A DNA stretch of 64,000 bases from positions 6,572,001 to 6,636,000 of the forward strand of contig CM035352.1 of assembly GCA_020137815.1 (NCBI GenBank), in the 5' to 3' direction. The position numbers and the translations under genes were made by a program. The stretch comes from Hormiphora californensis (lineage: Eukaryota; Animalia; Ctenophora). The stretch's first letter is position 1; each line of letters starts with the position of its first letter. Shown piece by piece: positions 4,160-62,040 of the stretch. The notes beneath the pieces are model-generated. The model worked only from the letters and a program-made list of their open reading frames with translations, was not told the origin of the DNA and searched no databases.

Positions 4160-4185
4160 GATGTCGTCAGCTTCACTGCTACCAC

Positions 4186-4449
4186 TGTCTATATGATGTT
4201 GGGAAGGTGGACGAATGGAAACACGGTAGATAACGGGTGGTTAACAAAATAGACGGATCAGGTAGTACAACGTTAAGGTAGTTCGATATTGGGAATCTGA
4301 CAAAGTGCTTGTCACCTCAAAACTCATTCGATCTTCACAAGAAGCACGTGCGCGCACTTGAAAGGTGCATTTCAAGTGCGTGCACAAAAGTGTCACATAC
4401 TAATGATCAGTTCGCGCGTTACGTCCGGTAGGCGGTAACAACTGCGACA
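4186..4449 (-). mobile_element. 5' LTR (~264 bp) of the copia element, followed by a tRNA-Met-type primer binding site
   Basis: Minus strand begins TGTCGCAG (4449) and ends TAGACA (4186), giving TGTC...GACA inverted ends. PBS TGGTAGCAG at 4184-4176. The partner LTR is outside the window, so the outer boundary is inferred. Confidence 0.7.
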
Positions 4450-4816: not shown

Positions 4817-5283
4817 ATGGCGGCGCATTGACGCAAAATCAAAAAAAATAAAAACATGAAAAAAATAAAAAAACGTGTTTCAAAAAACATGTTTTTAAAA
4901 AAAAATGTTTTCGAAAATTTTGATTTTGCGTCAATGCGCCACGTAAGCCGGCTCAATGACGCAAAATCATGTTTTCAAAAATTTTTATTTTGCGTCAATG
5001 CGCCACGTGGCCGGCGCATTGACGCAAAATCAAAATTTTCAGAAAAAAAAACATGTTTTCGAAAATGTTGATTTTGCGTCATTGAGCCGGCGACGTGGCG
5101 CATTGACACAAAATCAAAATGTTCGAAAAATGATTTTGCGTCATTGAGCCGGCTTACGTGGCGCATTGACGCAAAATCAAAATTTTCGAAAACATATTTT
5201 TTTAAAAACATGTTTTTTGAAACACGTTTTTTATTTTTTTTAACGTTTTTTACTTTTTTGATTTTGCGTCAATGCGCCGCCAT
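4817..5283. mobile_element. Fold-back MITE-like element, copy 1
   Basis: ATGGCGGCGCATTGACGCAAAATC ... GATTTTGCGTCAATGCGCCGCCAT; near-complete palindrome with internal nested copies of the GCGCATTGACGCAAAATCAAAA unit. Confidence 0.8.
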
Positions 5284-6965: not shown

Positions 6966-9900
6966 ATGACAAGTTTGTTACTGCTGGTACTGAACATTCT
7001 TACACTCGCATCCACTGCAGGTAAGATACGGAAAACTTTAAAATCTGGGTGCCTTTCATTGCTAATAATTCGTAGTATGACATTTTGGTATGGTAAACCT
7101 GTAGACGGACCTTTTTTGTCACGTTATTGCCAGGGGCAATGGTGTAGCAACTAGAGCCGTGCACACAGTTACGAACTGCTCCTTCATAAACCACTTCATT
7201 GGCACGTTTTAAGGAAATGTGTGGCACGCAATGTAGCGGCGTGGCACACAATTTAGTGCTACTAAAACACAAGGATTTGCTCTATACTGTTTGTGTCATA
7301 TATAAATGATCGAAATTTTGTGTCCCGCTTGCTGCTACAGCGAATTCCCTTTCTTCATAGATTGACACGGCAGGGAAATTCAGCGATGCAGTAATGATCA
7401 CATTGCATAATTACAGTTTGGAGGAAAGCAACATGCTCAATGGATAACCCAACCATCGACCCAGTGCCATGGGATCTAGCGGCGGTACCTCTCCGCTTCA
7501 GCACAGATGGATCTTCCTACCGCATGAACGCATACTTCTATAAGTCAGACGGCACAGTGTTAGGTTTGTGATTTAAACTAATTCAAGATTTGCAGAAATT
7601 AGCGAACATTACCAACATTATTATTGTTGTACAGTGTTAGGTTTGTGATTTAAGGCCAGAGGGGGTGTCGACGGGTCTAAAAAGTTAATTTTGAGGTTTG
7701 GTCCGGCTCGTAGAGCCGGACCAGATGGAATAGTCGGAATCGTTTTAGCACGCACCGTTAAGGAGAAATTTGAGGTTAACTTTTGTCCCAAAAGTCCAAG
7801 TTAACCTCAATAATTCACAGAAGGGATGACTTGAGACAGCAGAAACGGTTCAAAAAGTTAAGGTTGAGCTAACCTTAGCAGTTCACAAAATATCGGAGGT
7901 TAACACATTTCCCGAAAAGAAGCCTTTTAGTCAATATCTCCGAACAATTTTTTCCCACTTTTTCCTACTTCCCTTCCATTCAATTAAAGACGGCTAGGAG
8001 TTCAGAGTTGGGCATTGAAATTTGGCAGGCATGATCCTGAGATGATCGTGTTGAAATTAGATGTAGCGATTTTTGATTTAGGCCCTGGTTCCAAAGTTAT
8101 TGTGGTTAACATCCAACCAATTCAAACTACCAAAATGTTAACCTCAATAACTTTGGAACCAGGGCCTAAATCAAAAATCGCTACATCAGATTTCAGCACG
8201 ATCATCTCAGGATCATGTCTGCCAAATTTCAAGGCCCAACTCCTAGCCGTCATTAAATTAATGGAAGGGAAGTAGGAAAAAGTGGGAAAAGTTGTTCTGT
8301 GTTAACCTCCGATATTTTGTGAACCGCTAGGGTCAGCTCAATGAAATTTTACAGTGACACCCTCCTTGGTGAGATTTAACTTTTTGCACCGTTTTTGCTG
8401 TCTCAAGTAATCCCTTCTGTGAATCATTGAGGTTAACTTGGACTTTTGGGACAAAAGTTAACCTCAAATTTCTCCTTAACGGTACACACTAAAACGATTC
8501 CAACTATTCCATCTGGTCCGACTCTTCAAGCCGGACCAAACCTCAAAAGTGACTTTTTAGACCCGTCGACCCCCCCCCCCCCCTCTGGCCTTAAACTACA
8601 GTCGGACCCCGATTTAACGGCACCCTCGGGGGAAAGGGTTTTGTCCGTTAAATCGGGGTGTCCGCTAAATCGGGGCCAAATACTGTTAATTTCCTATATC
8701 GGGGGAAGATTATGCTGCCGTTAAATCGGGGTGCCGCTAAATCGGGGGCCGTTAAATCGGGGTCCGACTGTATTTCAAGATTTGCGGAAATTAACGAACA
8801 TTAACAACATTATTATTGTTGTACTAAAATTCAAAAGTTCGCGTTTAAATCAAAATGTGCAATTTTCAACAATCAAACATCATACTATTTAGGTACCCTC
8901 AATATCAACAATAACGATAATTCTTACTACCTGGCATTTTGTACTGATGAACAGCCCGAGTGGTCTGACCCGAGTGGAGCACTTACCAGGGATGCATACA
9001 AAGACACGCCAAGCAGCGCCTCAGGACTGGATGGTAACTGGACTATGACCATGTCAGGTAGTTCCCCGCCCTAGATTACATGACTTTCAATGACCGAAAA
9101 GGACGGGTAATATCCTGTCACATGTCTATCTAAAATCGTTCATAACGTCCATAATTCTTCTTTTCTACAGATGTGGGGATAGTGGTAGAGTTTGCTGACG
9201 AGATATTGTTTGATCACAAGTATAATAAGAGTCCTTCCAAAGCTGTCAGTTGTAAGCAGCAGTGGTACGGAAAAGTAGCGTTTGTAGATTTCTGTGGAGA
9301 TGGCGCTGCCAACTATTACCTGCCAGGTCAGTAAGAAGTGGGTTTGGTTATGAAGGCTTCCCTCCCGGTGGGGCAATAGGACGTGTTTAAGCTCGGGGGG
9401 ATCTGGGTGCTGATTTCTAACAAAATTGTTCGGTAAATGGTATGCTTATGATGCATCTTTTTATAGGTTGCGATCCTATTGTGAACGCTGTTAATACGGT
9501 GGAGACTGCCCTATCCGAAGAAGAGACGATAATCTGTAATGATGGATATGTAAGGATTGGACCATCCGCCATGACCTGCCAAGTGAACGGAGCTTGGAAC
9601 GAGCCCACCCCAACAAAGTGCCAGCAACTGAGTAAGGGTAAGTTCTCAACTTATTCTGTCAGCCGATGCCACTAACTGATAACGCATTCAATGTATTGAA
9701 CCATGCCACCGCCCCAGTAAACATCAGACATCTCTATCCACCTTGATCTATCCTCACTATCAACATCTATTGCATGCCTGCAAAACGTTTCCTTCAAAGC
9801 GGCACATTTTTATTGAGCAGTGAGGGAACTACCCAGGGTTCCAATCTGGCCTCTCCATGGTATTTATCAGTCTGCGACACCTTATAGCCGTCGTTTCAGA

Positions 9901-12900
9901 GGCTGATTGTTCTCAGATATTTTTTGCCGATTATGGGGCTTCCGTGGGTAAAATCCTTGCTCTTCGAAAATGGTGGGACATAATGTCCCGGACATTCTTT
10001 GCGAGACCGGACCTGGGCTAGATTACTTTCCAAACAGAATTGATTAATTAAATCAGTGCTCATCGTTACACTAATGGTGAACACCATGAAACGAACTAAC
10101 GGCAACTACTTATAGGGTATTTCTAAGGTGATGTGGCGATGTGCCCCGCACCCCCCCTTTTTGGGCCTAGGGCACTTGTCAGTGCTATGATAAGCAATGC
10201 AGTAATGATCACATTGCATAATTACAGTTTGGAGGAAAGCAACATGCTCAATGGATAACCCAACCATCGACCCAGTGCCATGGGATCTAGCGGCGGTACC
10301 TCTCCGCTTCAGCACAGATGGATCTTCCTACAGCATGAACACATACTTCTATAAGTCAGACGGCACAGTGTTAGGTTTGTGATTTAAACTAATTCAAGAT
10401 TTGCAGAAATTAGCGAACATTACCAACATTATTATTGTTGTACTAAAATTCAAAAGTTCGCGTTTAAATCAAAATATGAAATTTTCAACAATCAAACATC
10501 ATACTTGTTTTTAGGTACCCTCAATATCAACAATAACGATAATTCTTACTACCTGGCATTTTGTACTGATGAACAGCCCGAGTGGTCTGACCCGAGTGGA
10601 GCACTTACCAGGGATGCATACAAAGATACGCCAAGCAGCGCCTCAGGACTGCGTGGTACCTGGACTATAACCATGTCAGGTAGCTCCCCGCCCTAGATTA
10701 CATGACTTTCAATGATCGAACAGGACGGGTAATATCCTGTCACATGTCTATCTAAAATCGTTCATATAACGTCCATACTTCTTCTTTTCTACAGATGTGG
10801 GGATAGTGGTAGAGTTTGCTGACGATATATTGATTGATCACAAGTATAATAAGAGTCCTTCCAAAGCTGTCAGTTGTAAGCAGCAGTGGTACGGAAAAGT
10901 AGCGTTTGTAGATTTCTGTGGAGATGGCGCTGCCAACTATTACCTGCCAGGTCAGTAAGAAGTGGGTTTGGTTATGAAGGCGTCCCTCCCGGTGGGGCAA
11001 TAGGACGTGTTTACTCGGGGGGATGTCTGGGTGCTGATTTCTAACGAAATTGATCGGCAAATGGTTATGATGCATCTTTTTATAGGTTGCGGTCCTATTG
11101 TGAACGCTGTTAATACGGTGGAGACTGCCCTATCCGAAGAAGAGACGATAATCTGTAATGATGGATATGGAAGGATTGGACCATCCGCCATGACCTGCCA
11201 AGTGAATGGAGCTTGGAACGAGCCCACCCCAACAAAGTGCCAGCAACTGAGTAAGCTAAAAAGAATGCCACCCTGAATGGTTGATCTATTAATATTGTGC
11301 TATTGTGCTCGTAATAAATTTGGATGAGATGGTGGAGGCTGGTGGGGTAGTATATCTGTTTGGTTACGAAGTCACCCCTATTATTGCATATAGGGGTGAC
11401 AATACCGCCTACCTAAAAATGAAAATTTACGGGACCTTCTCATAAAAAGTTATCGAAAACTTGTCTAAAACCTATCTAAAACGTATGGTACTAGTTTGTA
11501 TAGTAACCAGGACCTGAATTCTACAGAAAGTAACGACCGGTAGCGATTACACCGCATGTTTAACAACAGAGGTGTGTCGCATAACTCCTTATATGGGCAT
11601 AAAATTCCAATCTTGTGGAATTTTTTCTGACTCGACTATAGCTTAGTTATCAATGAATCCACCTCTAATACCTTTGGAATGGCATTTTGCACATTTCTGA
11701 AGGTTTTTGTAGCCAAATTCCAGCATCTTCATAGTTTTCCAAAAACAAAAACAGTGTTAATGGCCAAAATATCGAAAAATTCCGGTATGTAATGGTAGCT
11801 CAGACAATTTCCTCGGTATGTTCAAAAAATTAGAACTTTCTGTTTTGTAGTTTGGACACAGGAATTTTTTTCCCGCCGTACAAGCGATATTATTACCCCT
11901 CCGTGAGCTAGCGCAGAGGGGGAATTTCATTACCAATATATCTGTTTGGTTTCATTATTCACACCAATGGTGTTGGCGGATGTGACATGACATCGAATAA
12001 GCCGACGTCTTCAATATCATGTCACACCCGCCAACACTATTGCCCTAGTAAACGCGTGTACGCCGTTAGTTGCATAAACGACGTCGTTTTACTCCGTTAA
12101 CGGAGTCAAACGACCTCGTTTATGCAACTAACGCATTCAAAACTTGATAAAATTCTTTATTTTCAGGTTATAGCTGGACCTGTAGCTCCAATCCATCTGA
12201 CGCAGTCGCCTGGCAGTCCCAGTTTGGATTAGACTGCGATCTGAAGCTCAATGGTGCCTCATGCGATGGGTGCAGTGGCGATATTTGCGCCTACTGCCCA
12301 GATGAATTCATCTTTGAAGCCTGCCTGGCGAGTGATTGTTCTATCAAAGTCCCACTTAGTACCACGAAAAAATCTTCCCTAAACGTCCATCTTCCTGTTG
12401 GGGATCCAGATAATGGTTTTTCAATCACAATTTCTGTTACGATGCAAATATTAGATAAGGTTTACACATCCACCAGTTTTGGTGTAATCTCCCGGCAGTA
12501 CTCTGGAGCACAGCCCTCTTTGAGTTCAATTGAAACGCAAATGGATAATGGGGGCAGCTTCAAGGGGCTCCAGACTCTTCTTGCTTTTGTATCCTCCGTC
12601 AGTAACTTGAATGGCTTAGAAAAAAGAATTTTGGACATACTTGAGGGAGTTTCTCTCTCCAATAAGTACTCCTCCATCCAAATCTTATCGGTCTTGGACG
12701 AACTTTCTACAAAATCAGTAGTTGATACAGTCCATGATCGAGTTCTCCATCTTGCCGTTTCAGCATATAATGCGTGCAGTTCCAATTCGCCAGCTCACTA
12801 TGTTGGCTGTAAAACTCTAATGTCAGACACAATTTGGAATATGTGGAATCAAAGTATCATCTCGTGTGTCAGGAACGGGAGGCGTACTGAATGCCGAAGT

Positions 12901-26330: not shown

Positions 26331-27790
26331 CTAGCTATTTGCTGTTATGAGGCCCGTTTTGAAGGCTGCATCATCATCAGGTAGTTGCCGTGGTGACAAC
26401 ATCTCCATAGCAACGACAAACTCAGGTTGTAACTCCTTGACAACCGCTCTAGCGTGTGTAACCAGGGCGACCTCTTTCTCTGTCAGTTTATCACTAGTGC
26501 TACTGTCACTACACTGTGCTATGGAGGCGGCTGAGAGACGAGCTAGTGATGACGTCATCATGGTCCTATCTCCCTCACCATGGAAACACATCATGTGACA
26601 GAGGAGGAGGATCAGCTGAATACGCAGTTTCTCTGTATACCCTGCCATGGATCCCGGAGCACTTGGTTCGTCACCCAGCAAGATGACAACAGTAGTCCAC
26701 ACCTTGGTGAAGTGAGCCCCATAACACGCCCTGGAAGAGGGCTGGCCAAGAGCCAAGGTAGCGTTAATCCGAACTTTAAAGTTTTTGCAGTGAACAATGA
26801 CTGAAGTGAGGGTTTCAAATAGGAGGGGTGCCCAGTCCGCGTCGAGGGGGCTTATAACTGGGTTTTGAAGGGAGTTCATTAGAGCATGACACGCATTCCA
26901 CCGGGTTTTCATCATACCTGAAGCAGAGGGAGACACATTAACGACACTACATTTGCTTTGAGTTATAACAATGTGGTTGTTATTGGGTGTTGTTATTGAG
27001 AAAAAGGGCTAAATAATGACCCCCGTGTGACTCATGTTGTCGGATCATTGTTATTGACCCGGGGGAAGGAGGGGGTATGAGGGTGGGACCGAGAGGGGGG
27101 TATGTTTACCGGGAGGGTGTGGGACCGAGAGGGGGATATGTTTACCGGGAGGGTGTGGCATGGTGATGGGAGGGTGTGGCATGGTGATGGGAGGGTGTGG
27201 TGATGGGAGGGTGTGGTGATGGGAGGGTGTGGTGATGGGAGGGTGTGGTGATGGGAGGGTGTGGTGATGGGTTATACCTGAAGTTGAGGCACGAAGGAGG
27301 CATTCAATACTCCTTGTAACATAGTCCTTAAAATGAACCTTATCGTATGTGCTTTGTTTCATGAATCTCAATAGGTTTCCCAGTGCTCTCACGATGTTAC
27401 TCTTCACTTTGTCATTGCTGTCAGCTGACTTCAGAGACACGTCCAGTAATCTAGAGGAGGGTGGTAGTAGAATAACTTAATTCGGCCGGGAAAGGAAAAT
27501 ATTACATAATCTTCCCTCTGTTTACTAACCTCCCTAGCAGAAGATCACTAAAGTCGCTAACGAAACTGGGATTATTGCCCTTGTTGACGACCAGGGTGTC
27601 TGACAAGTTTCCCAGGCTCCAGGACACCCTTAGTATGAGAGTCCTGTCTGAAGAGTCTGTACTCTCCAGGGCACTGATGATTGCATTAGCAGTGTCCGCC
27701 ACAAAGAGTAGGTCATCCCGGATACACGGGTACATGACCAGCACTCCCAAACACCTACAGGGAGAGAGAGAGAGAGAGAAGAGAGAGAAG

Positions 27791-27838
<48 letters not shown>

Positions 27839-30800
27839 AGAGAGAGAAGAGATAGAGAGAGATGCAGACTCTCAGTATACATAGACTCTTACTACATAAT
27901 CTTATCTCTCTACGTAGCTCCTCTCTCTCTCTGCTCCTTTCTACTCTCTCTCTCTCTCCTCTCATCTCTCCCGCTCTCTCATCTCGACGTCTCTCTCTCT
28001 CGCTCTGGCTCTCTCTCATCTCTACCATCTACTCCTTCGTCTCCTACCTCTCTCTCTTCTCTCTCGTCTTCTCCTCTCAGTCTTCTCTCTCTCTCTCGAT
28101 CTCTCTTCGTATCTCTCTTGCTCCTCCGTCTGTCTCTCTTCATCTCTCTCTCTCTTCGCAAGGCCGTAGAGAATCGAGAAAAAGATACAAATAAAATCCA
28201 TGAAGACTTCGATATCCTTCCTAATTAATTATCGACGACGAATGATATCGGGGAATGAACTGGCAGACAGAACAACCATGTTGAAGAGAGCGCCCAAAGG
28301 TGTTTTACGACCTTCCAGGCGGATGACGTTGCCGGGACGTTAGGGTTAGTTAGGGCCAGCAGGAGTGTCATAATTAACCGCTGTGTGTGCACCTCAAATG
28401 AAGAGAATACCTTATTACCTGAAATGTAAAACAATCTAGAGATATTATTATTATGGGAGACGGGAGTATCATGGGAGGTTTGCAGAAGAATAGTAGTCTG
28501 CTACGGGCTACCTGGTAAACGGTAGGAATCATCCAGGTCACAAACAATGAACATCACAGCATAACAACACTAGTTACTTAACTAACCTATTGTTGATATG
28601 ATATCACACGCCCCGGGCATCATTTGAGATGACTCGTCTTGAAGTATTGGAACTACAACCCCGCTCAAGATACCCAACCAATGCTCAAGAACCTCCGATA
28701 GCTCCAATTTTGAGTCTGGCCTGAGGGTAATGGGTGTATGTACCGTGTGGGGCAATAAAAATGCCCCCCCAAGTCTACCATAGTTCCAGATATCGTGGAG
28801 CGCTAAAATTTGGTTCAGTAACTCTATGAGACAAATAAATAACTTGACCAAAATTTCAGACCTCTAGCTCAAAATTCATTTTTTTGATCGGAATGAACAT
28901 TGTCATTCATTCCAGGAAAAAATATTTTCCGGTTCAAAATTTAACCAATTATGTTTGGCTATCGATTAGCTTTCCAATGTGACCAAGATCAGCTAAATTG
29001 GACAACCACAAGAGACACAGTGTCATGTTGCTTTAAGTTAGTCAGGTCATGTGATCTTCACTGAATCGTTGATCGTGTTCAGTATTACGAATTGGTCTAA
29101 GTGGTAGAGAATCACGTATCACATCTGCTAATGAGGGATGACGATGCTGATTGGTCATGAGATCTGTAGCTCTTTGATAAATGTCCTTTTTCCTCGAATC
29201 ACATCACCCTGTATTGGTACACATACCCAATTAGCGGCCATGATACGAGATTCCTTTGCCCATTGACCCGATTAGCAATCCCGGAAACTCAACGATTCGG
29301 TGAAGATCACATGACCTGACTAACTTAAAGCAACATGACACTGTGTCTCTTGTGTTTGTCCAATTTAGCTGATCTTGGTCCCATTGGAAAACAAATCGAT
29401 AGCCAAACATAATTAGTTAAATTTTGGACCGGAAAATATTTTTTCCTGGAATGAATGACAATGTTCATTCCGATCAAAAAAATGAATTTTGAGCTAGAGG
29501 TCTGAAATTTTGGCCAAGTTATTTATTTGTCTCATAGAGTTACTGTACCAAATTTTAGCGCTCCACGATATCTGGAACTATGGTAGACTTGGGGGGGCAT
29601 TTTTATTGCCCCACATGTGTACTATGCGGCAGAAACACAAAAATTCTAAACTCGGTAACCATGGCCACTAGGGCCCTGTGATATGACACTCGACCTAATA
29701 ATTAGAATCGTTCAAATCCTTACATTTCGGTCTGGGCAGCTAGCGCACGGCCTAGTTCCTCCAGGACAAGGAGGGCCATATTCTGAACCATCGGATCAGA
29801 TGGACTTGACTCCAGAGTAAACTTGCCCACCTCTGACACCTCTTTCCACCTGGTAATATACATGTTACAAAAGAGGGTATTTGGGCCAAGAGGTCAGTAA
29901 AACAGTATTGTCCCACAAAAAGCGCTATGATGCAGTCATCCCCTTCCGAAAAACAGCACCTGTCAATAAGGGGGTTGAAACAGCACATTACCTGTCAATA
30001 AGGGGGGTTGAAATACAGCACATTACCTGTCAATAAGGGGGTTGAAATAGAATCTGAGAATCTGACATGTGATCTGAAGGCATTCCTTCTGGTGGGTCCC
30101 AGCCCGCAGGTGAGTCACACAATCCCCAAATACTTCTGAATGCCTAGTTAGCCACTCTCCCACCTACAATAGGGGTAAAGATTCAATTGTAAAATTAAGT
30201 AAGAACTTATACACAGTCACACTAGACTAGTGACCCCAGACCATTATGTGGCAGGTTAAGGGATGTATCTTGGAGAAAGTACTTGTACTCTATTATAGAG
30301 CATGTTGCTCTTTTCGAGTGCTTGGTGTGCCTGATGATGGCAATCAAATTGTTGTTGACCGCGTTGAGTAACAACAAATGTTTCAAATTACCTCTAAGAA
30401 GGGGGTCTCAATGGTGAGACATGTACAGAGAAGGTTAAGAGCTGCAGCTTGGACCTTCAACTGTCCGTTATCTGCCCTCATATACTCCCGACACACATTC
30501 AGAATCTGCAAGTTTATTAGTAGGGGTGAAGTAATTAGTAGGGGATGAAGTTAATTAGCGGGGGTGAAGTAATTAGCGGGGATGAGTTAATTAGCGAGGG
30601 TTGTAAATGCAGCCCGCGAGCCAGATTAGCTTAATTGTTATACAGTCGGACCCCGATTTACCGTGCCCTCGATTTACCGGGCAAAACCCTTTCTCCCGAG
30701 CATCGCGGCAAATCGGGGTCCGACTGTACAGTGTACCGTATTGTAGTAGTGGCCTAGAGCTAAATTTCAAAGCGGTACCTTGCTGATAATGCCAGGTGGA

Positions 30801-33800
30801 AGCTTTGAGAAGGGTGTGTGGGAGACAAGGACAGAGATACACTGAAGGTGGTGAGGTAGCACCGTTACGGGACATCCTGATACCTGACCCACCAACTCCT
30901 TGTGGAGGCCAGTCAGGTCGCTAGCGAGGGTCCGGGAAAATGGAGTAAATGCACCCGTTTCATTGCCTGCAAATTAATGATTGTTTACTGTTTAGTGCTG
31001 GGGTAACTCTTATTTTTCTTCTTCTTCTTCTAGAGGGTGCCTGGGATAAACCCACAAGGAACTATCGCGAAAGCGATTTGATCTGGTGGGCACTTATAGT
31101 AATAGATTGCCAAGTTAGACTGTTTTTTATAAAATAAAATAAAAGAGTTTGTACAAAACAAGTAATAGAGGCTAGTGGCCCCCGAACTGTCTGGCGCCGC
31201 GACCCCATCTGAGCGCACTGTGAGAATCAAATGGGGTATGGCGCCGCCATACAGCCCTCGAAGGGGTGGTGATAAAAAGTGGAGATGAAGAAGTAAGAAC
31301 CACCCAAACTACTAACAAGATTAATTGCATTATGTTCTAACATAATGCTGAATTTCCCTGCCATGTGAATCTATGAAGAAAGGAAATCATGACCAGATCC
31401 GCTGTAGCAGCAAGCGGAACACAAAATCCCGATCATCATATCACACAAACAGTATAGAGCAAATCCTTGTGTTTTAGTAGCAATAAATTGCGCGCCACGC
31501 CGCCACATTGCGCGCCACACATTTCCTGAAAACGTGCCAATGAAGTGGTTTATGAAGGAGCAGCTCGTAACTGTGTGCGCGGCTCTTGTTGCTACACCGT
31601 TGCCCCTCGCAACTAAAGTGTGACCAAAATGGTCCCTCTACCGATTAGTTAGTATACCAAAATGTCGTTTTCGAATTCTAACCCTGCTATGCCTTTTTAC
31701 AAAGTAAAAAGGCATCCGGGTGAATGCCTTCGGCATTCACCCGGGCAGGGAAAAAATTACCTTGTCTGTAGTCAGCTGCTACAAAATAGTGTCGACATGA
31801 TTCTATTAGGTTTGCTAACGCTCCAAGGCCAGCGATTCTACACTTCATGTTCTGTTCCCGTCCTATCACCGGTAATAAACCTGAAACAATGCGATAACAG
31901 CCCTGAAACTTTACTTTCCTGCTAGTAGCAGGAAAGTAAAGCAGTGCTACATTTCCCGGGAATTTCAGAGGTTTTGTACTTCTATGACTCTCTCACCAGG
32001 AACCGACCGAAACAAGTAAACAACCAATCAGAACTCGTTATTTAGGTCACGCGACTAGTTATCAGCCAATCAGGGACCAGTATTTCCTGATTCGGTCGGT
32101 TCCTGTCTCTCACCATAGTTAGTATCAGAGGGTAGGAAGGCAGACCAGACGCTATACATCCTGGACTTGTGGATGGTGGTGACACACTGTTGGAGAGTCT
32201 GTAGACTGGCCAGCCTGGTTCGGAACTTCACTGCAAGTACTTTACTGTGCAGACCCTCCTCAGTATCACTCTCGGAGTACTGAAATTAGAGGGGGGTTCC
32301 AAATTATACATTTATACAGCAGGAACTAAATTTAACGTACATGCTACCATAATTGCATGCAGTACTGCACTTCTGTTCCTACCTCAGACTCGGACGTTGA
32401 AACGACAACTTCACTTTTGATAGCAGCAGCGGGACTACCGATGGGAATCTTAGTGTCAACAGGAGTTCCTTTCTTGGAGGGGGGCTGCTGTGTGGTTCGA
32501 GGTTGTGGAGGTTTCCCTTGGGCACGGACCTAAAACATAACATTCCTTAATTAGCTCCACCACCCTGATGATACTATTTGTTGCTTTACAGTTAGGTTGT
32601 TGAGACTGATTGATCTGGTTTTCCTTCTCCATGATTGCTGTTCACTTTGTTGCGGTCTCTGCAGGGGGGCTCTGTCAGCATGTCTCGGATTTCTGTTCTG
32701 CTCCCCTCGCTGTCTGGTGTTGTCAGCAAAGCTGTCAGCTGTCCTCCTCTTACCTTTTCCTTTCCTGAGGATGTGTTGGTAAATAGTGGAACAAATACAG
32801 CTGTGTAACGTGTTATTTGTAACTAATCACTTGTTCCATGTTACTCACTTGTTCCTGACACGAGGCTGAGAGTACCGGCTTTGTCCGGATTCGCTAAAAT
32901 CGGACAGGTTCAGTTCGTCCAGAGACATGGATTCAAAACTTATGGCCGGGCTAGGTCCGGCTCCTTCTTCGAATATCATTCCTGGAAGGTTTGAACGTGA
33001 AACTTCTCTTCCATCTTACTACAGTCCGAGCTTCCCGGTAAATCGGGGTCCGACTGTATATTAAATGCAGATCGGTGGACACACGTCTCCACGTGTTAAA
33101 TGGACGGGTTGTTATCGTCGGTATAACAGAGGGTGAAAATGGGGGGAGGGGAGAGAGGTAAATGCCCTCCCTGCCGAGTGCCGAAAACTCTCTCGGGGTA
33201 AGTATTCGGCAGGGAGGGTAGGAAATAGGGGTATAATGCCCTACATGCCGACGGCGATCTCATCCCAATTTCGTCGGCATGTAGGGCATTAGACCCCTAT
33301 AATAGGCTATATCCCGCCCTCCCTGACGAATGCCCTCCCTATCGACCCGTCGGCAGGGAGGGCGGGTACCGTTTGTTATGCATATTATATATATATATCG
33401 TACTGGTGGGCTTTGTGTTCCTGTTGATTCGGTGGTGTTTATTGAGTGGCTTGAGTGTTCAAGAAATAATTCAAGGTGAATCACTTTTGCTACCTACCCC
33501 TGTGTGACACATACCTTTTATAACATTGAGAATAGTCTCCATGAGATACTGTGACCGGTTGTGTCTGGTGACGGTCTGCAGACACTTTGTCACACCAGCC
33601 CGGAGGCGGGCACGGTTCAGGTTGTCTCCATGGAGACGTGATTCAACCAGGGTACATAGAGTCTGAACTAAGGGCATCACAAACACCTCATCAACCACGC
33701 TGTGTCGGGATAATTTGTTGTTATTGGTGAATTCAACGAACCTATAAAATCAAAGCTACTACATTGATTGGTGGAATGTGTACTTACCTCTATACCTACC

Positions 33801-35186
33801 TGGGATCTACCTACTGAAACATTTACACTAACCTGTTCAGCATATTGTTTAAACACCGCAGGGCAAGATGTTGAACCTCACGTTCTGGTGCGGAACCAAG
33901 GATCAATCGGTGGAGCTCCCCACCCTCCCCTACAAGCATGTCTAGACAATCCAAAACCTGAAGTTAAACCTGGTTAGTGGGTAATAATGCATCATAAAAC
34001 CCCTACTAATAAATATCCATACATAAAAGGTTTCACATAGTTTATTGTACCCTAAATACCAGGAACCGACCGAAACGAGTAAACAACCAATCAGAACTCG
34101 TTATTTAGGTCACGTGACTGGTTATCAGCCAATCAGGGACCAGTATTTCCTGATTCGGTCGGTTCCTGCTAAATACTAACATTAAGGTCGGTGTCGTAGA
34201 GAAGAGCTCCCAGTGCTTCGACTGAATGGTAAACGTAATTGGTGGCTTTACACACGTCCAATATGAAGGAGGTACACTCGTTCAATTCCCCAGCACTAAA
34301 TGTACACTGAAAAATAATAAGAGAATTATCAAGGGGGTTGTGTATATTACACTTTTGTAGGCTACCTGCACCCCCGTGCTTGAGTCCCGTGTAATATACA
34401 CAACCCCCTTGATGAAAAGACATTTAGTGTAAGTAGAAAGAGAGAAGGGTCGGTATATAGCCAGAGAGAGGGGAGATATAGAAAGAGGGGATACAAGATA
34501 GAGAGGGGTGAGAGACAGAGAAAGAGCATGGTAAGCGTATTTAATCTGTAAGTAAAGTGATGTAATCGGCCCCGCAATCTTACCGATTGCCCCACACGCA
34601 ATACACAGTACACGGAGTGACCATAATGTAATCAGTAATATGGGTATTCAATTGCAGCCCTAAAATTCTTGCCGGGAACAGATGGTAGGTAAATAAACAG
34701 AACATTGATTAAAGGCTGCTGCTGCTGTTCAACTGTGTGAGTGGGTGGTTATGTGTAAACAGTGCTGCAGATCGATGCGATGAGAAACGCGCGTGCGGCT
34801 GACACTGCCGCCGCGCACTTTTCTCACAACAGCCACCCCGCGCCCTCCGTCTTTACCTTGACACGGTTGAGGGCCAGGACACACAGCTGACACCACTTCA
34901 CCTGGAGTTGCGCCTCCCCACACAGCCCTACTGTACATAACAGGGCACCCTTCACTTCCTGAAACGGGGTGTAATGATAAACACAGAGACAAGAGTAGTA
35001 AAAACTTAAAATAGGTCTACAAACTTGAAATTGGGCTGAAAACATGATTAATTTGAAACTTACATCTTCTTTAGGCACGCAACTCGGATCCCCATGTAGT
35101 TCTAAACTGAGTGATTGAAGGGCAAGGGATATCTCATTCTTGGGTGTCTTAGCCGTGAATCGAGATGCATTGAGCCATTGGGCCAT
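26331..35186 (-). CDS. HEATR6: HEAT repeat-containing protein 6, multi-exon
   Basis: MKTRWNACHALMN..NFKVRINATLAL; DSNDKVKSNIVRALGNLL; CLGVLVMYPCIRDDLLFVADTANAI..RVSWSLGNLSD. Start inferred from an ATG 10 nt after an acceptor; not every exon was mapped. Confidence 0.88.
27760..28160. repeat. (GA)n followed by degenerate (CT)n microsatellites in a HEATR6 intron
   Basis: Directly visible. Confidence 0.95.
28743..29618. mobile_element. Tc1/mariner-like fold-back element (same family as 41162-42038)
   Basis: TA|CCGTGTGGGGCAATAAAAATGCCCCCC...; ~340-bp complementary arms sharing ATAGTTCCAGATATCGT with the 41162 copy. Confidence 0.85.
30643..30726. mobile_element. Tc1/pogo-like MITE
   Basis: TA|CAGTCGGACCCCGATTT...AAATCGGGGTCCGACTG|TA. 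Confidence 0.85.
31345..31756 (+). mobile_element. Dispersed repeat ending in a double hairpin (Helitron/Helentron-like)
   Basis: Body is the reverse complement of about 7075-7385; the end ATGCCTTTT..AAAAGGCAT-CCGGGTGAATGCC-TTCG-GCATTCACCCGG recurs at 56448-56522. Superfamily is inferred. Confidence 0.55.
31997..32105. mobile_element. 109-bp hAT-like MITE
   Basis: CAGGAACCGACCGAA...TTCGGTCGGTTCCTG with 8-bp target duplication TCTCTCAC. Confidence 0.9.
33119..33371. repeat. GC-rich nested palindromic element in a HEATR6 intron
   Basis: CCCTCCCTGCCGA/TCGGCAGGGAGGG pairs around the central AATGCCCTACATGCCGACG..CGTCGGCATGTAGGGCATT stem. Confidence 0.65.
34060..34168. mobile_element. 109-bp hAT-like MITE, second copy
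   Basis: Near-identical to 31997-32105; 8-bp target duplication CTAAATAC. Confidence 0.9.
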
Positions 35187-35467
35187 TCAGGGGGCGCTAG
35201 GAGAATAAGATATTAAGGGAGCGATAATGGAGGTAAATAAGAAATGATAGAAATGATAGAATCAAAACAACATGGGATTTTTGTCAGTACTAAAATTTGA
35301 AATTCATATTACAACTTTTACTCTTCACATACCGTAGACACATAGACCAGTAATATATAATATAAGGGTAGATATATTCTTTTGTAATGATATTGACAAG
35401 TGAGACTCGGTTTATATCATCACTAAGAATGAATTCGGGAATTTTCACCGTTCAACGGCATCATCAG

Positions 35468-35510
35468 CTCAAATTAATTTGTGTAAAATAGTGTTGAAAA
35501 CTTTTAAACT
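35468..35510 (-). other. Genomic copy of a ctenophore spliced-leader exon, without a following GT donor
   Basis: Minus strand AGTTTAAAAGTTTTCAACACTATTTTACACAAATTAATTTGAG aligns ungapped (39/43) to the Mnemiopsis leader as I recall it (AGTTTCAAACTTTTCAACACTACTTTAAACAAATTAATTTGAG). The reference is from memory and needs checking. Confidence 0.75.
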
Positions 35511-35759
35511 GCAAATTAATTTGAGCTGATGATGAGGTTGAACGGTGAAAATTCCCGAATTCATTCTTCTTGGTAATAAACCTAGTCTCACTTGTCCATA
35601 CTATTACAAGAGAAGTATCGACATGAGACTCATATCAAGCTGGGGAACACAACAACTTATTCAATTGGCAGATATATTGCACAAAGATATACATGTACCT
35701 ACACCGTGTTTGTGTATATTTTGTTTGCTTTCTGTGATGTTCACACTCACACATACTAT

Positions 35760-36082
<323 letters not shown>

Positions 36083-36657
36083 CTTCCATTTACCTAAGTA
36101 ATGTATTTGCATACATTTTTCTCTCATTTGCCACATACACACACTTCACAACATAGGATATAAAATGAAATGAGAGAAAGAAAATGACGGAAGGGAAAGA
36201 AAGAAAGAAGGAGGGAGAGAGAGGTTGAGACCAGACATCACACTTTTACATATTTTATGTATGTTTCAGACAATTGCAAACAACCTCTTTACCACCCCCC
36301 GACAATCAAACTGTAAATGGAAACTCTGCGACTCTGGCTAGGCTTCAATTGGTGTGTACCTACACATGTGTATAATGAACAATCTACACACAATGATATG
36401 AACACAGTACACATGTACATATACACGCGTATACACAACACATTTAAATATAACCTATAATATTTTTTTCTCCCTTCCTTTTCTCTCATTCTCTTTCTCT
36501 CTCGCTCTCTGAGCATCTCCCCTCCTACACATACACGGGCCAAATAGGATGTATAAAACTGACAGAGAGCAACTAGAACAGGGAGAGGCTGACAAATAGA
36601 TCATTATGGTAACACTATATGTTAACACTATATGTTAACACTATGTTAACTCAAACA

Positions 36658-38218
36658 CTACGTAGTTAACGCAGGGTCAAACTCTGTGGCTTCATAAAAC
36701 AAAATATATCCGACTTCCAGGCCATTTGAAGTCCGGGGGTTGTCGTGCCCGAAAAAATCCTCTATACTCTTCTCATCGACCTTCTCGACCATTTCATCAT
36801 CAAAAATAAGCCAAAAATCGTGAGATTTTACCGCACAAATGTAGTGGCCTTTGTTCGGACCATTGCCGCAATGCACTACTACTGACATAAGTTGGTAGAG
36901 GCACTCTGGTTGGTGGGCATTATCAGAAGTGATAAAGAGTCTTAGTTCAAGGGGGAAAACAACCCGATACGTTAACTTCTTATACCTGTTGTCATTTTCT
37001 ACATACTTAAAACGCTTCAAATGTAGAGCTAACACCTTCGGTTGCTTCTTTATACGCATCCGCTTCTGTGCTTCTTGTTTACTGCAGCACGTTTCACAGA
37101 AATATTTCTGTGCTCCAGAGAGTGTTTCCATGGAGGAGAAGGATCGGAGACAATGGGATAGGGAGGTACTTTGTTCTATTTCGACTGACAGGTCCATGAA
37201 TGGCTCATCTTTGCAGGATAGAGCCTCACACGTTAAACATCGTGTTTCATTTGTTATTACTCCCTCAAATATCTCCTGTTTGAGAAATAAAAGGCGTTAG
37301 AAGTACATACCTTCAATTTTACAGAAACCAATTAATTTAAAACAGCAGGTTGGTTATTGAGAATTCTCAGTATCGGGAGCCCTCTCCCCTTAAAAAAGGT
37401 TGGTTTTTTGTTCAAGCAAGGCAAGCACTTTAACTTACTTCGACCCAAGTTCGCCGGTTTTTCTGCACGTCTCCTTCAGAAAACTCCGACCGAAGCAGAT
37501 CCGATATTGAATTGAGTAGGTAGTTTAGAAACTGGAAGGAGAGAAAAGGTTAAAAAGGAATTTAAATTGCATACTAACTGCTGTAACAGCCATATATCAC
37601 CCCTCCTCAAACATGCTAGTTGCTCTCTATCTCTCGGTATGAGAGTGTGTTCAACTAAATAAGGCTCATCAAGCCATATCGAGCAGTGGCAGGAGATTAT
37701 AACTCCGAGTTTGGTGATCTGCAACGAAACGAGGTAAAACCAAATAAGGTACCCCATTATTCCATATATGGGTGTATTCAAGTCTCAGCTGCTGACCGTG
37801 CAGTATATAAATACCTCATGGGCGTCCTGTTGCTGGAAATTGTTATACGTTTCATTTTCTTTTCTTAGTCGGGTGATAAAGCGCTTCGGAGCATGTACTC
37901 CCGTTCTTTTCTTCTGTGATGTGATACTGGAAAACAACTCGTAAAGGCAATACAGTAGATTTTCTTTCCGGGGCTTCTCCAGGGGTACCTTTAGCACCTG
38001 TAGTGGTCTTGTTAGAAAGAGAAGGAGGTGGAGAACACAATCAGAGTTGCAAGAAAGACAATAAATACCTTTTCCCGGAAGGGTTTGCAGAAAAAGAGTG
38101 CTTGAAGGACTGAGTTGCAGTAGCAGGTATTTCCAAAGTTGACCAAACCGTAATAATGCTCGTTCAAGGGAATCTGGGGTCCAATTTCACGTTCCAATTG
38201 GGAAGTCGACGCTCCCAT
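36658..38218 (-). CDS. USP46: Ubiquitin C-terminal hydrolase of the USP12/USP46 family
   Basis: [36 protein letters not shown]; QQQDAHE|FLNYLLN; His box [14 protein letters not shown]; four coding exons. Co-ortholog of USP12 and USP46. Confidence 0.95.
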
Positions 38219-38683
38219 CACACCCTGCATGAAGGATTATGAAATAGTGAGCATGAAACGAAGTGACTCAATTGTACACATAGTTTGTCAAAATAATGAA
38301 CTCAAAAAGAATGTCTTACCTATAATTGTAGAGCGATTCGGGGCGAAGTCCAAAAGTTGGAATGAGAACTTCAGCGTGCCATGTCATGCTCATTGCATCG
38401 CGCTACATTGAAGGGATAGGTGCTAGACAGACATATTGACAGTAGCATATTATAATATGAGGGTGTGGTTAATGGTTCTCGTGTTATTTATAACTTATAC
38501 AGTTATAACTATAAATAAGTATTTGAGACAATATCAGTCGCTGTCTGATATCAAGACGATACTTTTTTATCAACTTGTGGAGCTATGTTGAACAAATGAC
38601 AATAACTTATTACTAGACCATATAAAACCGCAGTTTGTTCCTTCTTTTCTTCAGTTTATATATTTACAACAATTGTGTCACCC

Positions 38684-39332
38684 CTAGTTCGATGACTTGT
38701 AGAACTTATCAAGGAACGAATCGTCCTTTTCCTTGACAATTCTCCGCTGGGTTTCCGTGTCATCGAAGTAAGCGTAGGCGTTGTAAGATTGTGCCCAAAA
38801 CTGGTGGAACTCTTCTAATGTCATTCGTCCTTTGACCACCATCATATCTATTACTCGCACATCCGTCACGTCTTTGTGTTTGAGGAACTCAGATCGCAAT
38901 TTTTTTCGGGCATCAGCAATGGATACCTGGAGAAAGTTAGTGTTACAGTGAAATGTTAAAACAATGAAGTAATTACAGTTGGACGTCGAATGAGTGTGAA
39001 AAATACCCCAAAAACACACCGAAATACAAAGAGGAGATTAATTCGAGAAAGCTACTTACATCAAGTAGATGTGATCTGCATGTCCAATCTAGTTCTCTGT
39101 AGAAATCGCGGTACAGAGCTGTTACACCTAGGAAGGCCGGGCATGTAGTTAGAGATAAAGAGGTAGGGACTGGGGAGGGGAGAGGGAGGGAGGGAGGTGT
39201 GAGGTTGGACTATACAACAAGTACAAGGTAAAGGATAGTCTACCTTAACTTACCAGCTCTGGCTTCCACGGCATTCTTCGACAAAATAGGCCGAACAATT
39301 TTTGTTGCAACTTGTCGCCCTGCACCAGACAT
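38684..39332 (-). CDS. NDUFA6: NADH dehydrogenase 1 alpha subcomplex subunit 6 (LYR family)
   Basis: VRPILSKNAVEARA..LYRDFYRE..ARKKLRSEFLKHKDVTDVRVIDMMVVKG..FLDKFY; three exons. Confidence 0.92.
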
Positions 39333-40248: not shown

Positions 40249-41161
40249 TATATATATGTATATATAATTTACATGGTTTTTTCCTCATTCGGGTTTTGTG
40301 AAATTTGCCACGGCCATTGCTCCACCCCTGATGAAATATTGCCTTGTTCGAACCTCCCTCCCCGCGCCCCGGGTTTGTCAAAACAAATGAAATAGAGACT
40401 TTTGAAGGTTAGGAAGAACTCGACATGATATTCCTTCAGTCAAAATTTCAAGTCTCTATCTCATCAGTGGACCATGGGAAGTTTCACAAAACCCGAGTGA
40501 GGGCTTTTTTAGATGGGATTTCCTTTTTAATTATTGCATTATGTATTCATAATGCGGTGTTTCCCTGCCACAAATGGAGGTAAAATTGATGACTAAGCTT
40601 CAGAACCGAATTTCCCGATGAATTTTGCACTCGAAGAGCTTACAACAAGCGGAATTCCGTCAGTGGTGTAATCTATTTCAGCAGATCTCTTGAGGAAACC
40701 ATCCTGTGACCCGATGACAGAGACTGACTCCGGTGGTGAATCCAACGTGGCGTTCACTTTACGTTGCACACGTTTGCCGCTCAGCTACTTTCAAATATGT
40801 AATACGACCAAGTAACAGAACCGTCTTCCTTGTCTTGTATTGTCTTGTAGTTCTTATTGTGCAGATACTGCACAGGTTTCAGCTGATTTTAGGTCACTTT
40901 AACGCACCTAAACGCAGTTTACAATAAAAGTTTTAGTGTACACAACAGGCCTTCCCTTAGTGGGTCCACCTAAATAAATTAAACACGTATCACCTCTCAG
41001 CCACTCTCAGACATGAACAGCACATTGAGGGGAAATATCATTGGGAAGTGATGGATAGCCTCTGACAGGGGGACGGTCATAAAATCCTATCAAGTATGAA
41101 ATAGTTGCCCAGGGATGATTTGAATTGGCCTAAGCTTCCGCAGATTGGTGATTAATATGTA

Positions 41162-42038
41162 ACGTGTTGGGCAAAAAAAATGTCCCCCCTAGACTAGCAT
41201 AGTTCCAGATATCGTAGAGCTCTAAAATTTTACACAGTTACTCTATGGGACAAATAAATAAGTTCCACAAAATTTCAGACTTTTAGCTCAAAGTTCATTT
41301 TTTTGATCAGAATGAACATTGTTATTCATTCCAAAAAACATGATTTTTCGGTCCAGAAGCCAAGCGATTGTCTTTGGCTCTCGATTTTCTTTCAAATGCG
41401 ACCAAGAAAAGCCAAAACGGACAACCACAAGGCACACAGTGGTCATGTTTCTGACAGTTAGTCAGGTCATGTGATCCCCACCGAATCGTGTAATTTATTC
41501 AGAATTGCTAATCAGGCTTAATGGTGGAGAATCACGTATCACAGCTGCTAATGAGGGATGACGATGACTATTGGTCATGAGATCCGAAGCTCATTAACAA
41601 GTGGCCTCTTTACCCAAGTGCTCCCGAATCACATGTCGCTTTTTCGATACACATCCCTCATTAGCGACTGTGATACGTGATTCTTCCCCACTAAGCCTGA
41701 TTAGCAACTCACGATTCGATGGGGATCACATGACCTGACTAACTGTCAGAAACATGACCACTGGGTGCCTTGTGGTTGTCCGTTTTGGCTTTTCTTGGTC
41801 GCATTTGAAAGAAAATCGAGAGCCAAAGACAATTGCTTGACTTCTGGACCGAAAAATCATGTTTTTTGGAATGAATAACAATGTTCATTCCGATCAAAAA
41901 AATGAACTTTGAGCTAAAAGTCTGAAATTTTGTGGAACTTATTTATTTGCCCCATAGAGTAACTGTGTAAAATTTTAGAGCTCTACGATATCTGGAACTA
42001 TGCTAGTCTAGGGGGGACATTTTTTTTGCCCAACACGT
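41162..42038. mobile_element. Tc1/mariner-like fold-back element
   Basis: TA|ACGTGTTGGGCAAAAAAAA ... TTTTTTGCCCAACACGT|TA; ~325-bp near-perfect arms; no transposase ORF. Confidence 0.88.
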
Positions 42039-42501
42039 TAGTAACAATGAAAATGATAAACGCTCAAATAATACATTAGCATATGCTGCAGACCATTCAA
42101 ATGTGATAACTGATAAGGCAGTCCTTTTCAAGTTTAAACAGAGCTTAAAACTTTGGCAAACGTTGCTGGCGCCACGCGCAGCGCGGGATAAGGCAGCGCT
42201 TTTCAACTTAAAACTTTTTTGTAAAATTTTCTTTCTAAAAAACAAGTTTCTTATCACGAAAGTTTTCAGAACCTACCTGAACCTGATTTCTATGCGGCCG
42301 CGGCGCAAAATTTAATGGAACGCGCGAACATGTCCAAGTTTATACACCGCGCCGCACTGCTCTGGCCAGGTTTAATTTTTCTCGATTTTTCAAACTCAGC
42401 TGAGTTCACTTTTTTTCGGGCTTTTTTAAAATTTTACGCCTTCTCAAGTCAGTTTTTTGTTACTTAATTTGGCTGTGAATGAACTAACCCCGTTTTTTAG
42501 A

Positions 42502-53958: not shown

Positions 53959-55833
53959 TCACTGCATCTGTGCCTTCCGTATCATATCCATCCTCTGAAA
54001 ACAGTGTTATTATTGAAACAAGAATAACATCGAGGAATTCTGGCCCGGGCAATACACTTTAGTTCACAATTTAGGATAATTTAGTAGTTTCAACAATAGA
54101 ATAAAGTCGGATTTTTTAATCAAGGGACAGGAGGCCGCGCATTCAGAGGGGTCGCGCGGCTTTGTATTTGCACGTGATAATCGAGATCAAGTTCCTGGCA
54201 ATCTTAAGACTTGAACCCGGAAGCGTTGGAAAGATAATACATTTTCAACGCAACCAAAACCATGTCTTTATCTTATCAGGAACAGGAGATATGAGCGAAA
54301 ACGTTTAGCACGCGCAAATAGACTTTTGTAAATGCGTGGCCCCTGTCCCTTGATTAAAAAATTCGACTTTAGGTATACTTGGTGACGGGTGTCTGACCCC
54401 CCCCCCCAAGTCTCAATAAAGTAAGTGTACAAATAAAAACAAGATGGTTTGCCAGTAAGTGTACCTGTTCTCCCACCCCCTCCAAGTCTCAATAAAGCAG
54501 GTGTACAAATAGAAACAAGATGGTTTTCCAGTAGGTGTACCTGTTCTCTGACCCCCCACAAGTCTCAATAAAAAATAAAGTGTACCTGTTTGTGTTGTTC
54601 CAGACAGATGTCCTTTTTAGCAGGTTTCTGTTCCTGTTCCCGGGTATACCCAGGTACCCACAGGTCGTAGTGTCGATCTAGATACAGCAACACATCCTTC
54701 GTCTCCAATTGTTTGCTCTTTCGGTGCGATGCGATCTGAGCTGCGGATCCGATAACGTCCTCAAGGAAGTCATCGCCTATCTTTAGTAACACCTAGAGAG
54801 AGGGTGAATTGTTGATTGTTGAATGTTTTGAGAAATAAAGGGAAGGTTGTTTGATGTACAGAGATGTAATGTTATCAATAAAAGGAAATCTGTGATAGTT
54901 TAGAATTGACTGAAACGTGATCGTTACCTCTTCCACCTCATCATCCAGCTGTCCAAGGGGGTCAATACCTCTCAGGACTTCCTTAAGATGTCGCTTCTGC
55001 AAGACCCGCTCCCCCTCTCCCCTACTTCCCAGATTGGTAGGTAATGGTGGTGGCATCGTCGGTCTCTGCGTGGGGAGAGTTTCAGTATTTTAGCAGGGGG
55101 GGGGGGCGTTTTGCTAAAAACAGGTTGGTCCAGCAGATAGATAAGAAGCGAAAGTAACTTGTTTTTGGTTTACGTAATTCAAATAAGAGTTCTTATCTCT
55201 AGGGTTTAGATCACAGAAACACAACTTCTAGAACATACACCGATACCTCGCCCCCCTCCACTATGTAACTTTACCTGATGGTTAGTTAGACCGGGTACCA
55301 TACCAGGGGGCATGTTGCCCTGTATAGTTACCTGATGGTTAGTTAGACCGGGTACCATACCAGGGGGTATGTTGCCCTGTATAGTTACCTGATGGTTAGT
55401 TAGACCGGGTACCATACCAGGGGGTATGTTGCCCTGTATAGTTACCTGATGGTTAGTTAGACCGGGTACCATACCAGGGGGCATGTTGCCCTGTATAGTT
55501 ACCTGATGGTTAGTTAGACCGGGTACCATGCCAGGGGGCATGTTGCCCTGTATAGTTACCTGATGGTTAGTTAGACCGGGTACCATACCAGGGGGCATGT
55601 TGCCCTGTATAGTTACCTGATGGTTAGTTAGACCGGGCACCCACTACCCCTCCACTGGGTATAGTTACCTGATGGTTAGTTAGACCGGGCACCATACCAG
55701 GGGGTATGTTGCCCTGTTGAATATTGCTCTGGTTGATAAACCCTGATTGTCCAGGAACCATCAAACTGGGGGTTGTGTTCGCCCCTCCCGTCATTACCAA
55801 CCCCATCATACTCTGTCCACCCGGCCCTGACAT
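53959..55833 (-). CDS. TAF12: TFIID subunit 12
   Basis: VLQKRHLKEVLRGIDPLGQLDDEVEE|VLLKIGDDFLEDVIGSAAQIASHRKSKQLETKDVLLYLDRHYDLWVPGY..EQHKQ|RMDMIRK; start codon approximate. Confidence 0.93.
54103..54370. mobile_element. TIR MITE in the last TAF12 intron, related internally to 61772-62040
   Basis: AAAGTCGGATTTTTTAATCAAGGGACAGG ... CCTGTCCCTTGATTAAAAAATTCGACTTT; shared core ATCTTAAGACTTGA..TCTTATCAGGA. Confidence 0.75.
55275..55715. repeat. 57-bp tandem repeat copying the TAF12 exon end plus donor (six full copies, one partial, plus the exonic original)
   Basis: Minus unit GGCAACATGCCCCCTGGTATGGTACCCGGTCTAACTAACCATCAG|GTAACTATACAG. Confidence 0.95.
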
Positions 55834-61771: not shown

Positions 61772-62040
61772 AGTCCGATTTTTAATAATGTGAACGGGGG
61801 GCGCGCACTTAATTCCACTTAATTCCATTTGCGCGTGCTAAATTTTGTTCCTGACAATCTTAAGACTTGATCCCAAAAGTATCGGAAAGATAATTTTAAG
61901 ACCTTTTCAATGCAACCAAGATAAAGTCTTTATCTTATCAGGAGCCAGAGATATGATCGAAACAAAACGGAAAAAACGTTCCCACGGTGCGTGGGAAAGT
62001 TTTTTGCGCGCCCCCGGTTCGCATTATTAAAAGTCGGACT
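61772..62040. mobile_element. Kolobok-like MITE
   Basis: TTAA|AGTCCGATTTTTAATAATG ... CATTATTAAAAGTCGGACT|TTAA. Confidence 0.75.

Follow-up and report, generated by a model that had tools for sequence, protein, structure and literature searches.

A spliced-leader-centred hairpin between two ctenophore genes, a probable terminal-repeat-only Penelope-like insertion

The DNA stretch analysed here, called the window throughout, is 64,000 nucleotides long and comes from Hormiphora californensis (GCA_020137815.1, contig CM035352.1, positions 6,572,001 to 6,636,000). It carries a 291-base hairpin element, flanked by minus-strand genes for a ubiquitin protease and a HEATR6-like protein. In this element spliced-leader copies stand head to head with a hammerhead-like core behind each, and the right end of the element is at position 35669. 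The features are as follows, in window coordinates.

35197–35198, minus strand: predicted AG acceptor of the HEATR6-like gene (not RNA-confirmed); the leader copy lies 271 nt upstream of it
35370–35378, plus strand: left copy of a 9-bp direct repeat, a probable target-site duplication (chance 1.2–2.7%, loose rule)
35379–35467, minus strand: left arm body, the tailless copy of the inverted terminal repeat
35443–35467, minus strand: hammerhead-type core made up of CTGATGA, an unpaired base, a 5-bp helix II and GAAA
35468–35510, minus strand: spliced-leader copy, 43 nt, with 39 of 43 letters as in the printed leader (PMC8527503)
35512–35525, plus strand: remnant of a second leader, its last 14 nt (25 further letters in run X5)
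35526–35550, plus strand: second hammerhead-type core, with two changes that break helix II
35526–35612, plus strand: right arm body
35613–35669, plus strand: one-sided tail, 57 nt, whose recurring core (35623–35662) begins at ATG
35670–35678, plus strand: right copy of the 9-bp direct repeat
36658–38186, minus strand: exons of the upstream ubiquitin-specific protease gene

The gene downstream of the insert shows a weak DUF4042 match (E-value = 2e-4, below the cut-off). DUF4042 is a HEATR6 domain, and the weak match fits this assignment. A preliminary description of the locus had placed the leader copy about 270 bp from the HEATR6 acceptor and in the same orientation, which agrees with the 271 nt counted to the inferred AG at 35198–35197. 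In the single presumed-RNA run, coverage is found at the leader only and none on the arms or on the first exon of the HEATR6-like gene. The LYR-family, ubiquitin protease and HEATR6-like genes all read in one direction (window 26331–39037, minus strand), and no AATAAA or ATTAAA is present on the minus strand between 36660 and 35200. This stretch could be an operon-like cluster.

The inverted repeat of about 250 bp reported in the preliminary description is borne out. An inverted-repeat search gives two arm pairs, 35415–35481/35512–35578 (67 nt, 91% identity) and 35377–35415/35576–35614 (39 nt, 87% identity), and 91 of 103 alignment columns are identical between the left and right arms. The predicted fold has an energy of −89.2 kcal/mol (z = −18), which none of 100 shuffled sequences equalled. 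A hairpin alone is ordinary in this window, where 11 other palindromic or inverted-repeat stretches were examined. The hairpin and the leader of the earlier anatomy stand; the hammerhead-like core, the tail and the 9-bp repeat had been overlooked.

Rfam gave generic hairpin and snoRNA matches below gathering scores, and miRNA and snoRNA readings were rejected. An assembly artefact is ruled out, since single contigs of runs X1 and X5 cross the centre and the whole stretch, respectively, and the two arms are also present in organism B. Other repeats lie in the window. Long palindromic elements that have no leader are found at 4817–5283, 7649–8595, 28746–29615, 41160–42040 and elsewhere, including two related copies of about 880 bp that are 79% identical. 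A Copia-type open frame of 1413 codons with zinc knuckle, integrase and RVT_2 domains (window 2–4240, minus strand) runs off the window start.

The 43-mer read on the minus strand from 35510 to 35468 had been taken for a ctenophore spliced leader. Its alignment with the H. californensis leader printed in the available part of PMC8527503 gives 39 of 43 identical letters, and the next-best leader-like site in the window reaches only 25 of 43. Metagenome contigs were scanned with a 22-letter pattern for the 3′ part of the leader, yielding at least 121 loci. Among the matches listed, the leader is at the contig start in 111 of 121. A sense frame of at least 100 codons starting within 400 nt is present in 74 of the 75 listed start-leader loci that have 1000 nt or more. 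A Pfam scan took in 75 of the 80 long loci, leaving out five retroelement-like ones; of the 75, again among the matches listed, 63 carry cellular Pfam families at 1e-8 and none a reverse transcriptase (RT) or GIY-YIG domain. With such mRNA-like contig starts the identification of the 43-mer as a spliced leader is well founded. The variant letters of the window leader were not seen among the listed loci, which have the canonical 3′ 22-mer. Locus L103, where only 16 letters agree with the printed leader, is probably a chance match.

Behind the 43-mer the sequence reads CTGATG and not GT, as first described and as a re-reading of the letters bears out. GT directly follows the leader in 12 of the 121 loci (among the matches listed), so GT alone is not diagnostic of a spliced-leader RNA gene. 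Two of the loci, L088 and L089, show the leader followed by GTAAG, a structured part and a U-rich stretch, and lie in tandem 778 nt apart on one contig. These are candidate tandem copies of the spliced-leader RNA gene. The window copy has the same leader exon as these candidates. It differs from them in having no GTAAG, no structured intron part and no tandem spacing, in line with the original view that it is not a spliced-leader RNA gene.

Genomic copies of the leader are numerous. Two ctenophores are reported to have 718 and 491 of them, for which main-text passages of PMC8527503 give no explanation. In three presumed-DNA runs the depth in the leader bin far exceeds that of the flanks (in X1 about 7,500–10,700 against 13–48); this depth is repetition and gives no copy number. 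Loci L072, L082 and L086 are further leader copies with 53–280 non-leader letters upstream and no GTAAG. The L072 leader heads a 266-codon frame, and the upstream DNA of L082 resembles window repeats at 54096–54283 and 61826–61943.

The core behind each leader starts at the first base after it with CTGATGA and a single unpaired base, followed, after a further 13 nt, by GAAA. These 13 nt make a 5-bp helix in the left arm, which two changes disrupt in the right arm. Core plus stem occurs once in the window, and shuffles put the chance per position at about 1e-6 with the stem and 1.5e-5 without it. No core lies within 10 nt of the leader in the 121 leader-bearing metagenome contigs (among the matches listed). 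Rfam returned 19 matches, none at the gathering score and none a hammerhead. By inspection the leader end offers no helix I, and helix III is not clear-cut; the ribozyme is putative. Several family copies end helix II with TCGAAA or TCGAAAC (the partner strand lies outside the letters displayed), the canonical C11.1 form in hammerhead numbering.

The 9-bp direct repeat encloses both arms together with the 57-nt tail on the right, and ends in ATT. The expected length for a PLE target-site duplication is 8–10 bp, and the 9-bp repeat here, which chance gives in 1.2–2.7% of trials under the loose rule, is only of moderate significance. Direct repeats of at least 8 nt, by a similar rule, are found at 2 of the 11 other inverted repeats of the window. 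No empty insertion site is seen in the contigs of either run comparison.

The window stretch was compared twice with contigs of four runs. The second comparison, with the full leader omitted from the stretch, covered runs X5, X9, X11 and X12 and gave 14, 21 and 22 matching contigs in the first three and none in X12, a seawater run. Parts of the leader-core segment and of the tail recur at other loci in two related organisms. The recurring tail core is about 35–40 nt within the 57-nt tail. Similarity to it mostly begins at 35622–35625, at the ATG, and ends at 35648–35662 (most often 35656–35662), at least 7 nt short of the 9-bp repeat. At other loci arm-like letters stand directly ahead of the tail core, and a 334-nt contig of organism B from another locus has both a leader-core part and a tail core. 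In X5 the full leader is ahead of the core in four contigs, with a consensus matching the printed leader at 25 of 26 letters (hand count). Among the matches listed (24 of 42 and 24 of 94), the core was never preceded by an acceptor other than that of the leader. Family copies are visible only as 30-letter ends, often of mixed consensus. The centre and the tail show extra depth and the outer arm ends do not. In the frame of the tail ATG two boundary changes are silent and the listed change at 35645 is not; another frame is open too.

A parent element with RT and GIY-YIG endonuclease was not found in viral and metagenome contigs, in prokaryote genomes or by protein and Pfam searches. The leader-plus-core pattern gave no hit in viral or metagenome contigs, and the tail pattern none in prokaryote genomes. 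A 43-codon open frame over the right arm has no protein-search match that supports a parent. The match of its residues 2–23 to a repeat-domain surface protein was rejected as chance.

In run X5 the symmetry centre probably keeps an older state of the element. The right arm restarts at 35512–35525 with the last 14 nt of the 43-mer, a point of the preliminary description that holds on re-reading. The X1 contig crosses the centre with zero differences, and X1 is possibly the source sample. The X5 contig, from another study and another individual, is 25 letters longer behind 35510. Counted by hand, 16 of the 25 match the printed leader, 13 of them among the 16 at the 3′ end; the added letters are in register with the 14-nt remnant and continue the second leader. 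Thus the older state has two leaders head to head. The missing piece has short look-alike ends on both sides, the same five letters (GCAAA), as expected of a slippage deletion. From these letters, the 14-nt restart is probably the scar of a later deletion of about 25 nt and not a fold-back point. The earlier proposal of a fold-back at a self-complementary 14-mer is therefore not supported, as X5 keeps most of the second leader there. X5 also has 13 letters missing in the left arm at window 35411.

Organism B carries both arms, so the insertion is older than the split of organisms A and B. Over 35570–35610 and its left counterpart, a left-arm contig (X11) and a right-arm contig (X9) of organism B, which are two different samples, have eight letters in common that are unlike the right arm of the window. 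At positions 35579 and 35606 the two arms in the window carry letters that neither organism B arm has. Arm letters common within organism B suggest arm-to-arm conversion or selection for pairing. Further leader/leader head-to-head joints are seen as loose ends in X1, X9 and X16 at window 35499–35511. The X9 joint, on a 116-nt contig, belongs to another locus, and the joint in X16, a presumed RNA run, may be a library artefact.

It is likely, on balance, that the hairpin is a dead Penelope-like element (PLE) insertion consisting of the terminal repeat only, probably reverse transcribed from a sense, leader-spliced element RNA. The head-to-head inverted terminal repeat, the one-sided tail of family sequence (57 nt against 30–40 bp in print) and the hammerhead core in the terminal repeat, with helix II in the left arm only, are present; a frame with RT and GIY-YIG is absent from the insert. 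PLE membership is likely and not proven, as the searches above turned up no parent carrying RT and endonuclease. The leader at the symmetry centre indicates a sense, trans-spliced template, and a reverse-transcribed, trans-spliced RNA, as first proposed, is judged the best source. The insert most likely has no function.

PLEs are present in ctenophores, and the Naiad PLEs with an ‘HHR_core’ include one ctenophore family (passages of PMC8557442). A purified PLE protein cuts both strands with a preference for ATT, and its reverse transcription begins at two internal sites, which define the tail (PMC11167929, in part). An insertion of the present kind would form in these steps. The host would splice the leader onto the PLE sense RNA directly before the core. 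The element protein would make a staggered 9-bp cut in AT-rich DNA, and each nick would prime reverse transcription, the two internal starts lying 57 nt from each other. The two cDNAs would run to the capped end of the RNA and be joined head to head. The later 25-nt deletion would then have taken most of the second leader from the window allele.

The best-surviving alternative, which we hold as tentative, is that a single cDNA from PLE RNA began at the tail, ran to the leader 5′ end, snapped back there and was extended over itself, stopping 57 nt before the end where it had begun. Leader-ended cDNAs do self-prime into hairpins in vitro (PMC9984361, in part). The X5 centre is nearly symmetric, and the other head-to-head leader joints in X1, X9 and X16 point the same way, with the reservation that the X16 joint may have arisen in the library. 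However, snap-back alone gives no target duplication. It should also leave the full-length leader on the arm with the tail and the truncated one opposite; both alleles show the reverse, so that a later loss is needed. This polarity favours two-ended priming, and snap-back remains a live rival since a later loss could hide the polarity. A version with the cDNA begun at the tailless arm does not stand, as self-copying cannot yield the 57-nt tail, which is family sequence.

It is rather improbable that an ancestral element took up the leader a single time and has since kept it as DNA in its repeat, with a hairpin that could then have come from a self-primed antisense transcript, although an antisense model is in print (passages of PMC3846280). 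Among the matches listed, whenever a family copy shows the sequence ahead of the core, this is leader, and no unspliced parent was seen, as this explanation would have it. The position of the symmetry centre at the leader 5′ end would then be a coincidence, and is expected for RT run-off on a capped RNA. The family leaders have also stayed near the present-day leader, and what follows the core is widely divergent, a comparison biased by matches that were anchored on the leader.

A slightly less probable source is a trans-spliced RNA that is not from a PLE (of host, retrozyme or SINE-like origin) and that a LINE mobilised through twin priming or template switching. The hammerhead-type core and the tail are PLE traits, and animal retrozymes are reported as PLE derivatives (10.64898/2026.07.22.740005, in part). 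LINE-like elements headed by the same leader are found in marine contigs and the PLE parent was not found, both in favour of a LINE, but the 3′ end of the insert shows neither poly(A) nor tandem repeats. LINE twin-priming inversions, moreover, usually join non-overlapping parts and not two copies of the 5′ end. A Mutator or foldback-type miniature DNA transposon with a leader by chance is very unlikely: long inverted arms and a 9-bp duplication are traits of such elements and the window is rich in palindromic elements, but the tail between one arm and the repeat makes the ends asymmetric, and the extra depth at centre and tail, not at the outer arm ends, is the opposite of common terminal repeats.

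The leader-headed LINE-like elements are four metagenome loci, L028, L039, L043 and L065. Each has a nearly complete leader, then an ORF1 with a zinc knuckle (43–59% mutual identity) and a second frame with an endonuclease domain, significant in three and truncated at E = 0.0015 in one. The RT domain lies beyond the sequence examined, and these assemblies are inferred to be DNA. Non-leader letters precede the leader in L028 (102) and L039 (38), suggesting genomic junctions; the upstream letters of L043 and L065 are too few to judge. Leader-headed LINE-like elements may account for many of the hundreds of reported genomic leader copies. In Hydra about 30% of transposon long reads have a spliced leader (passages of PMC12220107), so trans-splicing of transposon RNA is already known, and leader-tagged retrogenes are known in dinoflagellates (PMC5585692, in part). 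AG is found in the leader only at its two ends, so that a leader written back into DNA would bring along an acceptor of its own.

A broader model is possible, and is put forward with reserve. Ctenophore PLEs and LINEs, although unrelated classes, would both make their 5′ ends by trans-splicing, and copies lacking a promoter but with their own acceptor would be re-leadered from host read-through, recopied as far as the cap and reinserted. Genomic leaders would then be the 5′ ends of full-length retroelements, and the hairpins would result from two-ended PLE priming on sense RNA. The 718 and 491 leader copies in two ctenophore genomes (PMC8527503, in part) could be explained in this way; genomic leader matches are not all spliced-leader RNA genes. 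For PLE head-to-head ends, sections of PMC3846280 argue for self-priming on an antisense template and call for experiments. Leaders are added only to sense RNA, thus leader-centred hairpins are a natural strand tag, which makes the question of the PLE template strand countable in any ctenophore assembly.

In the literature covered, with limited access to subscription journals, no case was found of an animal PLE repeat that starts with a leader and is present twice, head to head, and the available text of PMC3846280 has no occurrence of ‘spliced leader’ or ‘trans-splic’. Pen2a_Av is described with an inverted repeat, a one-sided tail and a 9-bp duplication (PMC3846280, in part), and PLE insertions in general with a tail of 30–40 bp (PMC8557442, in part). 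The window insert shares with Pen2a_Av-type insertions the inverted repeat, the one-sided tail, the probable 9-bp duplication, an AT-rich site and a hammerhead-type core, but has no open reading frame body, has a host spliced leader at the start of each repeat and has the longer tail. Published PLE copies with inverted pLTRs are known for intron retention (passages of PMC3846280 and PMC8557442).

The minimal PLE hammerheads, which have an unpaired base before helix II (PMC4209133, in part), and the Naiad ‘HHR_core’ (PMC8557442, in part) show CUGANGA, an unpaired base, helix II and GAAA, as found here. In D. virilis Penelope the 3′ end of an intron maps to the 5′ end of helix I (same passages of PMC4209133), which is the position of the leader in the window element. 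The junction here would be a trans-splice, and by inspection no helix I can form with the leader. In the DinoSL-tagged retrogenes of dinoflagellates (passages of PMC5585692) a leader written back to DNA marks a copy of mature RNA, as it probably does here, whereas here the host is an animal and what was copied would be the end of a retroelement, in two head-to-head copies, and not a host gene. Thus each part of the element has a precedent, and the combination appears to be new in the literature covered.
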